This document shows, piece by piece, positions 37,832 through 40,817 of a stretch of 64,000 nucleotides of DNA (position 1 is its first letter; every line of letters begins with the position of its first letter). Below the pieces are notes generated by a model, which was not told the DNA's origin, ran no database searches, and was given only the letters and a program-made list of their open reading frames with translations. The DNA is from Nitrospirota bacterium (GTDB taxonomy: Bacteria; Nitrospirota; UBA9217). Where the stretch lies: assembly GCA_963663225.1 (NCBI GenBank), contig OY760142.1:2688001-2752000 (forward strand). The letters run 5' to 3'. Made by a program: the position numbers and the translations under genes.

Positions 37832-38959
37832 TTATTTTTTCACGCTGAAACAAAAAACGGTTCCCTCTTTCTCCGAGGTGGTGAAATCCACCGCTCCTCC
37901 CAAAATATCCTCACCGAACAGTTTCATGGAAAATGTTCCAAGCCCTCTTCCGATTTTTGCCTTTGTGCTGAAATTTCGCTGAAATATTCTTCGTGCAACG
38001 TCAGGGGGAATCGACTTTCTGTTCCATACAAGGAAATTAATTTTATCCTCCGACGGTTCGCACCAAACTCTTACTTCATCTCCTTCCGGGGTCTCTTCAA
38101 AAGCATTTATAATCATATTGGTAAGTATTTTCAGCAGCAGGGACGGCTCCGTGTTGAGGGCAATATTTACATCGTCTTTCGGCAGCACGAGTGACTTGTT
38201 CTTTGAAGCAGCATGATTCCCGAACAATGCTTTGAGTTCTTGAAATATCTGCGTGACGGAGATTACCGTATAAATCGGCTGATAGGCTGTCGTGCCGGTA
38301 TTACTGAGGCACTGTTGGACCGATATTTCGCTCATCAGTCTTAATGAACAAGTTTGTATAGTGCGGGACAAATCGCGAATCTCGTCCGTATCCATGCTTT
38401 TGGAAAGGAGATGGCAGGCGCCATGAAGTCCGGTGATGATTCCGTTGATATCATGAAAAAACACCCGTTCCAGCGCGGTTAGTCTTTGCTGATAGGTAAT
38501 ATCCTGCAGGAACAGGAGCAGCAGGCGTTTTTGTTCATACTGTATCGGAACACATCGTACCCGAAAAAACAGATCGCGATTACTATTTTCTTTCGTAGTA
38601 ATGGCGCATTCCTTTTCAGCCGGTATGTCCGATGTCAGGCTCGTAACAATGGATATTGCTGCACCGCATGTCGAGCAGTATTTGCTTGTTCCGCACCCGG
38701 CCGGCATTTCATCGGCGTGCACGCACTTCAGCGCCTCTCCGGGGCGAAACCCCAATACGGCTTCGACATCGTCTATTTTCAGCATTTCGAGCAGCATGCT
38801 GTTCACAGCAAGGATCTGCCGTTGGCTGTTCAGTACCGCCAGAAGACCGCTGACGGAATGAAGCAAGCCGTCAATGACGGAATTGTTGCTGATAAACTCA
38901 ATCTCGTTCTTTAACTCGTCTTCAGATGACCGGTCAGGAGTCGCAAAATAGGTGTCCAT
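37832..38959 (-). CDS. Soluble sensor histidine kinase with a Cys-rich PAS-like domain
   Basis: FFHDI H-box, NM-x2-NA-x-E N-box, FSTK-x3-RGLG; N-terminal CVH-x6-GCG-x4-C-x2-C; no TM. Confidence 0.85.
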   Translation of the reverse strand: MDTYFATPDRSSEDELKNEIEFISNNSVIDGLLHSVSGLLAVLNSQRQILAVNSMLLEMLKIDDVEAVLGFRPGEALKCVHADEMPAGCGTSKYCSTCGAAISIVTSLTSDIPAEKECAITTKENSNRDLFFRVRCVPIQYEQKRLLLLFLQDITYQQRLTALERVFFHDINGIITGLHGACHLLSKSMDTDEIRDLSRTIQTCSLRLMSEISVQQCLSNTGTTAYQPIYTVISVTQIFQELKALFGNHAASKNKSLVLPKDDVNIALNTEPSLLLKILTNMIINAFEETPEGDEVRVWCEPSEDKINFLVWNRKSIPPDVARRIFQRNFSTKAKIGRGLGTFSMKLFGEDILGGAVDFTTSEKEGTVFCFSVKK

Positions 38960-39406
38960 GGCGGTTTCCTTTCAAGTCAGGCAACGGGATAGGAATGGTC
39001 TCTCAAGTATATCAGGAGCGTGACCGTGACGCGGCAAACAAAAACTTCTTGGGTATATTTACCAAAAAATTATTGTATTTTCAATAAAAAAATGCATCAT
39101 ATGCGAGACAAAAACAAATTGGCGATATGTTTGTCCTAGATGCGTACGCGGTTGTGAGGGTAGCTTACAGCTTTGGAGAAAGGGATTACGTTTTCCCGCG
39201 TTTCAAGCTCTACCTTCGAAGCTTCAGAGGATGAAATATTCCAATACTTTTGCCCGATGCCAGCTGTCTGCGCATGGTCGCAAAACGGTAACCTGCGATA
39301 AGTACCAGCAGGCAGACGACACCTAAAACAAGCATGGAGCCGATGAATTCATTTATTGTATCAATGGGTTAGTAATATCTTTGCTGTCGTGATGTTCACA
39401 TACTGG

Positions 39407-40741
39407 CTAGTCGTGTGCTGCGCCATTGTTCTGGACGGCGTGGTACAGCCGCTGAACAAGGGCCTGATTAAAGCCGTGTGAGGTCATGTTGGCGATGATG
39501 CGTCCTTTGATGGGGAGTCCGAGGAGATACAGGTCTCCAATCAGGTCCAATATCTTGTGCCGCACGAATTCGTCGGAATATCTGAGCTTTGTATTAATGA
39601 CCTTGCCGTCATACATGATGATGTGGGAGTTAAGGTATCCACCGCCGACTTTTCCGAGTTTTTGCGCCATTTCGATATTCTCAAAGGTATTGAATGACCG
39701 GGCTGGAGCAATCTCTTTTGTGAAGGAATTGTTTTGAGGATTGAACGTCAGAACCTGTTCTCCGATGGGCAGCGGGTAGTCAACCCGCATTGATATTTCG
39801 AATCCATCAAAGGGCTCTACATAAATATGCTTTTCGTGCTTCTGCTCATTGCCCACACCGATTTTTTTGAGGACGACGGCAAGCTTGGTTTGGGCGTTCT
39901 GCTCTTCTATTCCGGCTTCTTCTATCAATACGCAAAAATCTTTGGCGGAACCGTCAATATTCGGGATCTCTTCTTCGACCTTGATGAGTACGTTGGTTAT
40001 GCCGTACATCGAAAGCGCGGCCATCAGGTGCTCAACGGTGCGCACCCGCCTCCTCCCGTTGTCCAGAATGGTAGAATTTGCCGAGAAGGTTTTTAATGGC
40101 GCTGTTTTTGAGAAGTCATCGAGAGAGGTAATATGGCCGGGTATGGTTTGACCGTCAAGCGTTTGAAAGACGATGCCTTCATCGGTCCCGAGGGGACTGA
40201 GGATGATGCCTGTATTTTTGCCGCTCAGCAGGCCTATGCCGTTCAGAACCACATTTCCCTTAAGCGTGCGCTGGCGTACCGGTGAATCAACCACCTCTAC
40301 CATGCCGGGCGGAACAGAAAGATCGGTGCTGACAATCTCGAGCCTCGTATCCGACGGCAGGGCTGTGTCGTCTCCGGCAGGAGTGTGCTTCAGGGCCGAT
40401 TCAACCTTGTCGAGCAGCACTTCCAGATGCAGCGGTTTTTCGAGGAAATCATATGCGCCTGCTTTTATGGCGGCGACTGCGGCTTCGATGCCGGCATGTC
40501 CGCTCATCATGATGACGGGGAGGGCAGGAAAGCGGTCGTGCAGCCGTTTCAGGAGCTGCATGCCGTCAATGCCGGGAAGCCAGACATCCAGCAGAACGAG
40601 GGATGGCTCCATGGTATCAAGACTTTGCCAGAGACTTTCCGCGTCCGGAAAGATAAGGGTCTGGTATCCCTCATCCTTCAGGATGCCCGCTACGGTGGTA
40701 CAGATAGAAGACTCATCATCAACTATGCAGATAGGGTTCAT
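39407..40741 (-). CDS. lpxC: Response-regulator receiver domain fused to UDP-3-O-acyl-GlcNAc deacetylase (REC-LpxC)
   Basis: REC: IVDDE, LLDVWLPGIDG, MSGH, FLEKP. LpxC: QRTL, TVEHLMAAL, PNIDGSA, EIAPARSF, HKILDLIGDL, SH-x2-N. AGGA RBS before ATG 40741. Confidence 0.9.
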   Translation of the reverse strand: MNPICIVDDESSICTTVAGILKDEGYQTLIFPDAESLWQSLDTMEPSLVLLDVWLPGIDGMQLLKRLHDRFPALPVIMMSGHAGIEAAVAAIKAGAYDFLEKPLHLEVLLDKVESALKHTPAGDDTALPSDTRLEIVSTDLSVPPGMVEVVDSPVRQRTLKGNVVLNGIGLLSGKNTGIILSPLGTDEGIVFQTLDGQTIPGHITSLDDFSKTAPLKTFSANSTILDNGRRRVRTVEHLMAALSMYGITNVLIKVEEEIPNIDGSAKDFCVLIEEAGIEEQNAQTKLAVVLKKIGVGNEQKHEKHIYVEPFDGFEISMRVDYPLPIGEQVLTFNPQNNSFTKEIAPARSFNTFENIEMAQKLGKVGGGYLNSHIIMYDGKVINTKLRYSDEFVRHKILDLIGDLYLLGLPIKGRIIANMTSHGFNQALVQRLYHAVQNNGAAHD

Positions 40742-40788
40742 ATTTGGTTGTCCTATGGTCCCTTCCGGCCTGAGATTAAAGTGGTGAT

Positions 40789-40817
40789 AGTGTAAGATGT
40801 TGCCGGACATTTGTCAA
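40789..40817 (-). promoter_or_regulatory. Sigma70 promoter of REC-lpxC
   Basis: Minus strand TTGACA-17 nt-TACACT. Confidence 0.7.

Follow-up and report, generated by a model that had tools for sequence, protein, structure and literature searches.

Can the committed step in making lipid A be placed under the direct control of a two-component signal? This question is raised by a gene on the reverse strand of a 64,000-nucleotide stretch of a Nitrospirota bacterium genome (GTDB lineage UBA9217; assembly GCA_963663225.1, contig OY760142.1, positions 2,688,001 to 2,752,000), hereafter the window, in which one open reading frame (ORF) encodes a response-regulator receiver domain (REC) followed by the lipid A enzyme LpxC. 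Lipopolysaccharide (LPS) synthesis is committed, and most tightly controlled, at the step that LpxC catalyses, and the control of LpxC, through proteolysis, partner binding and transcription, is known mainly from a few Proteobacteria. If a receiver does act on LpxC, this would be a new post-translational control of the committed step, carried in many genomes by the sole copy of the enzyme, and a direct handle on the balance of outer-membrane synthesis in diderms other than Proteobacteria. REC-LpxC is a genuine form of LpxC that is conserved and seems not to have been studied. We put at roughly 0.6 the probability that it is a working LpxC with a genuine, flexibly tethered, NtrX-derived two-component receiver, through the phosphorylation of which the enzyme would be controlled. 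The gene and its parts are the following.

39407..40741, reverse strand: REC-LpxC gene, 444 amino acids plus stop (ORF, Pfam and NCBIfam; start from the N-termini of homologues)
40388..40741, reverse strand: receiver (REC), residues 1-118, with the acidic pair D8/D9, the phospho-acceptor D52, S80 and K102 (Pfam PF00072, NCBIfam, matches in the Protein Data Bank (PDB), conservation)
40274..40387, reverse strand: linker, residues 119-156, rich in Pro, Ser, Thr and Asp and unconserved (alignment of 29 homologues)
39434..40273, reverse strand: LpxC domain, residues 157-436, with E237-H238, S349-F350, H395-K396-x-x-D399, D403 and H422 (PF03331, TIGR00325, alignment to Pseudomonas aeruginosa LpxC)

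The open frame extends from 39407 to 40810 on the reverse strand (467 amino acids), and the start at the ATG at 40741, which gives 444 amino acids, is supported by homologues whose N-termini begin there with MNPICIVDD or MKPICIVDD. The original prediction, made from the sequence of the window, had described a single ORF with a complete receiver and intact LpxC catalytic motifs, and profile searches agree with it. The receiver is matched by Pfam PF00072 Response_reg (3.6e-28, 98.4 bits, cut-off 30.2), and the LpxC domain by PF03331 over its full length (9.3e-75, 252 bits, positions 1-267 of the 268 of the profile) and by the NCBIfam equivalog TIGR00325 lpxC (217.3 bits, above the cut-off of 187.25). 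Relatives of solved structure are LpxC chains of P. aeruginosa, Escherichia coli and Aquifex aeolicus and, for the receiver, NtrX of Brucella (5m7n, also 4d6x). Zinc ligands and catalytic residues of the fused LpxC were identified by alignment to the P. aeruginosa chains, S349 taking the Thr/Ser position of the Thr/Ser-Phe pair. The top NCBIfam match of the receiver is likewise the NtrX model, in accordance with the NtrC/NtrX-like receiver that had been predicted, but it covers only residues 26-141 and reaches 114 bits against a cut-off of 600. Neither the AAA+ sigma-54 interaction domain nor the C-terminal Fis-type helix-turn-helix (HTH_8) was found in the protein with Pfam. REC-LpxC is a descendant of the NtrX/NtrC-type sigma-54 activators without being a member of them. 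Database records call such fused proteins simply LpxC.

A gene of this composition could be an assembly chimera of a regulator gene and lpxC, and the original prediction had itself named read coverage across the junction and a search for the domain architecture as checks. Both speak for a real gene. Single contigs from three runs of three studies span the junction and the whole gene without indels; one of them shows 0 differences and is probably the source, while a 39,979-base contig of another study shows 55 and that of the third study 48. Both Pfam domains are present in 120 of the 120 best database matches listed (81-99% identity), and the full-length fusion is encoded in 14 of the 80 genome loci retained, which are labelled Nitrospirota (4), Desulfopila, Desulfofustis, Myxococcota, Oligoflexales, Leptospirales, "delta proteobacterium" or "Deltaproteobacteria" (3) and others (2). 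When 301 genomes of the phylum were sampled (threshold E at most 1e-60), the fusion was present in 42, all from the window's family, where it occurs in 42 of the 64 genomes and is whole in 37, and in 0 of 237 genomes across 33 other families. With the junction spanned independently and the architecture recurring in this manner, the chimera is refuted.

The next question is whether the fused enzyme does the work of LpxC. The window's genome is one contig of 3.26 Mb and contains two LpxC genes. The second one, a possibility that the original prediction wanted checked, is a canonical LpxC of 305 amino acids at about 961 kb, which scores 355.7 bits with PF03331 against 253.8 bits for the fusion and is 37% identical to it. 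This coexistence of two so divergent copies would be expected if the fused LpxC-like domain no longer made lipid A, having acquired another substrate or the role of a ligand sensor, and the canonical LpxC did the real work. We surveyed 64 genomes of the window's family with the PF03331 profile, and the scores fall into two clean classes, 341-365 bits for canonical and 237-257 bits for fused-type LpxC. Both forms were found in 19 of the 64 genomes, the fused type only in 18 and the canonical only in another 18. Three genomes have a canonical LpxC with a partial or broken fusion (G010, G021, G023), two a partial fusion only (G018, G067), three no LpxC match (G013, G041, G042) and one an unclassifiable LpxC fragment only (G078). 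Two of the 18 with the fused type only, G060 and G070, hold extra LpxC fragments that are unclassifiable, and eight of the 18 are at least 95% complete (G020, G022, G047, G048, G068, G069, G072 and G074). This patchwork, in which either or both forms are present within the same genera, points to two interchangeable isoenzymes.

The remainder of the pathway leads in the same direction. LpxB is kept in all five fused-only family genomes tested. Outside the phylum, one complete chromosome (G003) and two metagenome-assembled genomes (MAGs; G004 and G005) have LpxB and LpxK with fused LpxC only, and two further genomes (G001, G002) have both LpxC forms; overall, LpxB was present in 8/8 and LpxK in 3/3 of the fused-only genomes tested. 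The fused enzyme thus belongs to the lipid A pathway as the only LpxC of 18 of the 64 family genomes and of G003, G004 and G005, and the fusion that they carry is of the very subclade, with Leu172, to which the window protein belongs. Though indirect, this speaks strongly for a fused enzyme that makes lipid A and can serve as the sole LpxC. As the catalytic and zinc residues are also invariant in the fused forms and the TIGR00325 score exceeds the equivalog cut-off, the idea that the domain has lost its role in lipid A synthesis is close to refuted.

The fused LpxC nevertheless has characteristics of its own. In the window's subclade the residue at the position of the active-site His19 of P. 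aeruginosa LpxC is Leu172, and the EH motif is preceded by an insertion of 10 residues (around residues 213-222). Both lie near the active site and could be taken as signs of an altered function; they are compatible with LpxC function, however, since both are present where the fusion of this subclade is the only LpxC. Nine positions (177, 178, 180, 184, 246, 254, 270, 309 and 420) are at least 80% conserved in fused and rare in canonical LpxC. The fused forms also have no C-terminal tail: the residues past the LpxC domain have a median of 3 in fused (n=43) and 27 in canonical proteins (n=29), and in the window's genome the canonical copy has 27 past the aligned domain and the fusion 6. The C-terminal end of E. 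coli LpxC is reportedly needed for degradation by FtsH, as the title of the 2006 work of Fuhrer et al. has it. PF18073, tried as a marker of LapB, proved unspecific, with matches in 11 of 14 control genomes, and its match in the window's genome is an N-terminal zinc ribbon that is not LapB-like. In P. aeruginosa LpxC, His19 forms hydrogen bonds with many inhibitors, according to the available text of PMC11877204.

If the enzyme works, its receiver could still be a relic, that is, a leftover domain on a constitutive LpxC with no regulatory role. Such a fate would be in line with the decay that the ancestral AAA and HTH modules did undergo (see below), and also with the lack of a linked, dedicated kinase gene and with possible natural splits between receiver and enzyme. 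The splits concern two genomes with the fused type only, G043 and G044, in which the receiver is not in frame with the LpxC part, with the shift in the linker at residues ~122-129; in G021, which has an intact canonical lpxC, the fusion is frameshifted near residue 277-280. All three may be real splits, pseudogenes or indel errors in assemblies of few contigs. Against a relic stands the conservation of the receiver across 29 aligned REC-LpxC proteins, a diverse set that reaches down to 25-30% identity. The residues S80 and K102 are found in 29/29 rows, as are E237-H238, R348, F350, H395-K396, D399, D403 and H422 of the enzyme, and D8, D9 and D52 in at least 90%. Identity to the window protein in successive relatives is 87/81, 76/80, 64/70 and 47/39% for receiver and LpxC, respectively, so that the receiver keeps pace with the enzyme, while the linker falls from 74% to 0% (0-13% outside close relatives). 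The linker, which had been estimated at about 35 residues, is 38 residues long in the window protein by alignment and 24-67, with a median of 38, across the 29 homologues. From these comparisons the receiver appears to be under the same constraint as the enzyme domain, and it has been kept in at least five named lineages. We therefore consider a relic receiver rather improbable, and a receiver that is maintained for its function the better explanation.

Where the receiver came from can be read from the closest relatives of the fused enzyme. Searching among 50%-identity representatives sorted by domain content, we found the nearest LpxC domains in proteins of three architectures: REC-sigma54 AAA-lid-HTH_8-LpxC (~650-736 amino acids), REC-HTH_8-LpxC (~490-505 amino acids) and many short REC-LpxC. 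A tree of 92 LpxC domains separates 30 canonical rows from all fused rows (support of 91 in the Shimodaira-Hasegawa-like approximate likelihood ratio test, SH-aLRT); in a tree of 55 rows this split has a support of 99.4 and the window's subclade one of 99.7. The long and short forms interleave in the 92-row tree, P0128 grouping with P0131, and P0137 with P0125 and P0155. A grouping of all short forms in one clade is rejected by the approximately unbiased (AU) test (p 0.00036). The test was carried out on 55 of the 92 rows, leaving out three long-branch, eight near-duplicate window-clade and 16 further canonical rows as well as the classes A, H and fragment, and the tested group was set by architecture, though after the first tree was known. 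In the AAA modules of 15 long forms Walker A is mostly kept and the GAFTGA motif or the Walker B Glu is present in 0/15, while the NtrX-like regulator of the window's own genome and the NtrX of a relative have both. In addition, each of the four metagenome loci whose long form is full-length has an NtrY-type gene that ends ~115 base pairs (bp) upstream on the same strand. From the nearest architectures, the interleaved tree, the decayed AAA modules and the position of ntrY it would follow that the family arose when the NtrX of an ntrY-ntrX operon was joined to LpxC, and that the activator machinery subsequently degenerated and was removed on more than one occasion. The window's subclade would later have parted from the ntrY operon. 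A tree of the receiver domains themselves, which are short and noisy and include some fragment rows, was poorly resolved, and a placement relative to NtrX receivers was not obtained from it.

The fused gene seems to be mobile as well. The fusion of Desulfopila sp. IMCC35006 (L007, L212), a cultured carrier of both LpxC forms, is 77% identical to that of the window, while the canonical LpxCs of the two are 42% identical, and rows of Desulfobacterota and Myxococcota nest within Nitrospirota-labelled rows in the 92-row tree. The difference between the two identities suggests that the fused gene was transferred horizontally between phyla.

This ancestry directs attention to NtrY as the source of the signal. 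The window's genome (G000) has one NtrY-type kinase, of 732 amino acids with NtrY_N, HAMP, PAS, HisKA and HATPase_c (G000:C1:1440598-1442796; L094:4599-6797). Its gene lies 1.29 Mb from the fusion and has no regulator gene beside it. In 9/9 genomes of other families of the phylum ntrY is directly followed by an NtrX-type regulator gene, with a receiver 41-52% identical to the fused one, while in 12/12 genomes of the window's family there is no receiver or AAA gene after ntrY within 1.1-3 kb. The possibility that ntrX was lost in the family and replaced by REC-LpxC was ruled out, as an unlinked NtrX-like sigma-54 regulator of 460 amino acids with GAFTGA is present (G000:C1:696174-697556; L127:675-2057). 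In all 12 of these family genomes ntrY and the ntrX-like gene lie apart, in contrast to the adjacent pair of the nine genomes from nine other families. It may be, therefore, that NtrY acts on both receivers or on the NtrX-like regulator alone. Among the carriers from other phyla, an NtrY_N candidate was found in 4/5, none of them linked to the fusion, although the NtrY_N model is weak outside Alphaproteobacteria (17-30 bits). A link between the NtrY-type kinase and REC-LpxC, as suggested by ancestry, seems to us possible, with chances slightly under even.

Another kinase gene is found much closer to the fusion.

37832..38959, reverse strand: soluble histidine kinase, 375 amino acids (Pfam HATPase_c only; PAS lead of 0.95 in the ESM Atlas)

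This gene lies on the same strand as the fusion, 447 bp downstream of it. In the translation, the PAS-like N-terminal part of the kinase carries a cluster of four cysteines (C-x9-C-x6-C-x2-C), and it is possible that the protein is a redox or metal sensor. If this were the cognate kinase here, the switch would report a cytoplasmic, perhaps redox or metal, signal and not one of the NtrY type. The adjacency is kept in G009, with a fusion 99% identical, and in G007, with one 88% identical, but in these two the gap is about 855-895 bp, so that it is both large and variable. MatE and kinase synteny was found only in these two close relatives; kinase synteny is missing in G006 of the same genus, in six other genera and in the 14 loci of other lineages. 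Orthologues of the sensor part (at least 54% identity) occur in 5 of the 64 family genomes, among them G011, which has no fusion, and most carriers of the fusion have no orthologue of this kinase. The neighbouring kinase is thus excluded as a conserved partner of the fusion; it is probably not a dedicated partner either, and that it is the cognate kinase in this genome is unlikely.

We can now return to the proposed control of LpxC by a phosphorylated receiver. A histidine kinase, most likely the unlinked NtrY-type membrane kinase of the genome, would phosphorylate D52, and an altered receiver surface or dimer state would change the output of LpxC, either by docking of the receiver on the catalytic domain and its release, as in CheB, or by dimerisation. 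Since the fused forms are tail-less, control through the receiver would replace control through the C-terminal tail. The original prediction had proposed direct two-component control of LpxC; all the computational results agree with it. That phosphorylation has an effect, in which direction, and from which kinase it comes, is our inference. For the direction, we lean, on two weak arguments, towards phosphorylation lowering LpxC activity. Loss of NtrYX in Rhodobacter sphaeroides raises lpxC mRNA 8.8-fold and increases LPS, according to the available parts of PMC7240162 and PMC12444477, and the frame splits of G043 and G044, if real, would mean that no attached receiver is needed for the enzyme to be active.

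A number of observations weigh against this proposal. The fusion of the window's subclade was never found beside ntrY, neither in the 14 loci nor in the 12 family genomes, and the genome keeps an NtrX-like partner for NtrY, so that the link to this kinase is one of ancestry only. Co-occurrence is uninformative, with NtrY present in 29 of 31 relatives with or without the fusion, and it is a kinase of another type whose gene sits 447 bp downstream. To these are added the poorly resolved receiver tree, Leu172 in place of an active-site His, and the two split genes, which, if real, would show an enzyme that works without a covalently attached receiver. A wider formulation is more tentative than the kinase link itself: an envelope or redox sensor of the NtrY type could set the flux into lipid A by phosphotransfer directly onto LpxC, which would place the known transcriptional NtrYX-lpxC link in one polypeptide, replace the control that is exerted elsewhere through the C-terminal tail (by FtsH/LapB in enterobacteria), and make a module mobile between phyla. 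Its scope would be the window's Nitrospirota family and scattered genomes labelled Desulfobacterota, Oligoflexales, Leptospirales and Myxococcota.

The surroundings of the fusion vary between lineages. The gene had been predicted to lie apart from any lpx operon, and it does sit away from other lpx genes, flanked by a MatE transporter gene and the histidine kinase gene (Pfam), with the MatE gene and a BrkB-family gene upstream on the same strand. None of 13 neighbours in the window recurs beside the fusion in the 14 other loci, no neighbour family is common to more than 4 of the 15 loci, and ten flanking genes are from unrelated Pfam families. An AsmA/YhdP-family gene (outer-membrane lipid transport) was observed two genes from the fusion in one delta-proteobacterial MAG only (L008:8203-10296, reverse strand). 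An Rfam search around the fusion gene returned nothing meaningful. Between the fusion and kinase genes there is an ORF of 41 amino acids (39210..39335, reverse strand), hydrophobic in an N-terminal stretch and basic in its tail; it could be a small membrane protein or due to chance. In front of the fusion the following site was found.

40817..40789, reverse strand: promoter-like match TTGACA-17-TACACT, 10 of 12 positions (sigma-70 consensus only)

The site lies ~48 bp before the ATG at 40741 and overlaps the alternative ATG at 40810. The original prediction gave the gene its own sigma70 promoter. The consensus match is indeed present, but beyond it this part of the prediction gained no support, because the region has 4 sigma-70-like sites against 2.5 +/- 1.7 in shuffled sequences, which is not above the shuffles. 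A promoter of its own is plausible for the fusion gene, as far as a consensus match can suggest.

The mode of control had been thought uncharacterised, and the literature is in accordance with this. No description of a receiver-LpxC fusion was found in a search of full-text literature, which did not extend to subscription papers, supplements and censuses of response regulators. A 2026 review of LpxC control in the Journal of Biological Chemistry does not mention receivers, response regulators, two-component systems or fusions, and the available text of a 2025 review in the same journal (PMC12444477) has no mention of a receiver, a response regulator or a fused LpxC. The controls of LpxC that the reviews describe are proteolysis through FtsH/LapB/YejM and, in Pseudomonas, binding of MurA. 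What is new here is the evidence, at the level of a family, that a genome can have the fused form as its only LpxC, together with the repeated domain loss, the transfer between phyla and the finding that the neighbouring kinase is no conserved partner.

In relation to known systems, REC-LpxC stands closest as an enzyme to the stand-alone LpxC of E. coli, P. aeruginosa and A. aeolicus, with which it shares the same full-length domain, the zinc ligands and the catalytic Glu, His, Asp and Thr/Ser-Phe. It differs from them by the N-terminal receiver and linker, the missing C-terminal tail and its position in a separate clade, and the window's subclade differs further by Leu for His19 and the 10-residue insertion before EH. 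The REC-AAA(decayed)-HTH_8-LpxC and REC-HTH_8-LpxC proteins (P0125, P0128) belong to the same LpxC clade and have the same type of receiver; linked to ntrY, these long forms (480-736 amino acids) have kept Walker A but have neither GAFTGA nor the Walker B Glu, and in the window protein the reduction is complete. CheB and other response regulators with an enzymatic output have a receiver on a flexible linker to a hydrolase. CheB is thus a plausible model for a receiver that gates an active site, while its catalytic fold and pathway are unrelated to those of LpxC. In Desulfovibrio vulgaris the regulator DVU2934 of the DVU2931/DVU2934 system has the lpxC promoter as its sole target, according to the available text of PMC3333781. 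This is likewise a two-component system dedicated to LpxC, but its control is transcriptional and its proteins are separate. NtrY/NtrX resembles the present case in the NtrX-like receiver, in the long relatives encoded behind NtrY-type kinases and in the shared connection with lpxC and the level of LPS. The expression of lpxC is lowered by NtrYX in R. sphaeroides and Caulobacter crescentus (PMC7240162, PMC12444477), in the former indirectly, with no NtrX site found upstream of lpxC (PMC7240162), and the control of lpxC by NtrYX and ChvGI is transcriptional (PMC12444477), as far as the available parts of these sources go. In REC-LpxC, by contrast, the receiver is covalently on the enzyme, the DNA-binding and ATPase parts are gone and the gene is unlinked to ntrY. 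A fusion of this Rosetta-stone-like kind also supports the connection between NtrYX and LpxC seen genetically in Alphaproteobacteria.

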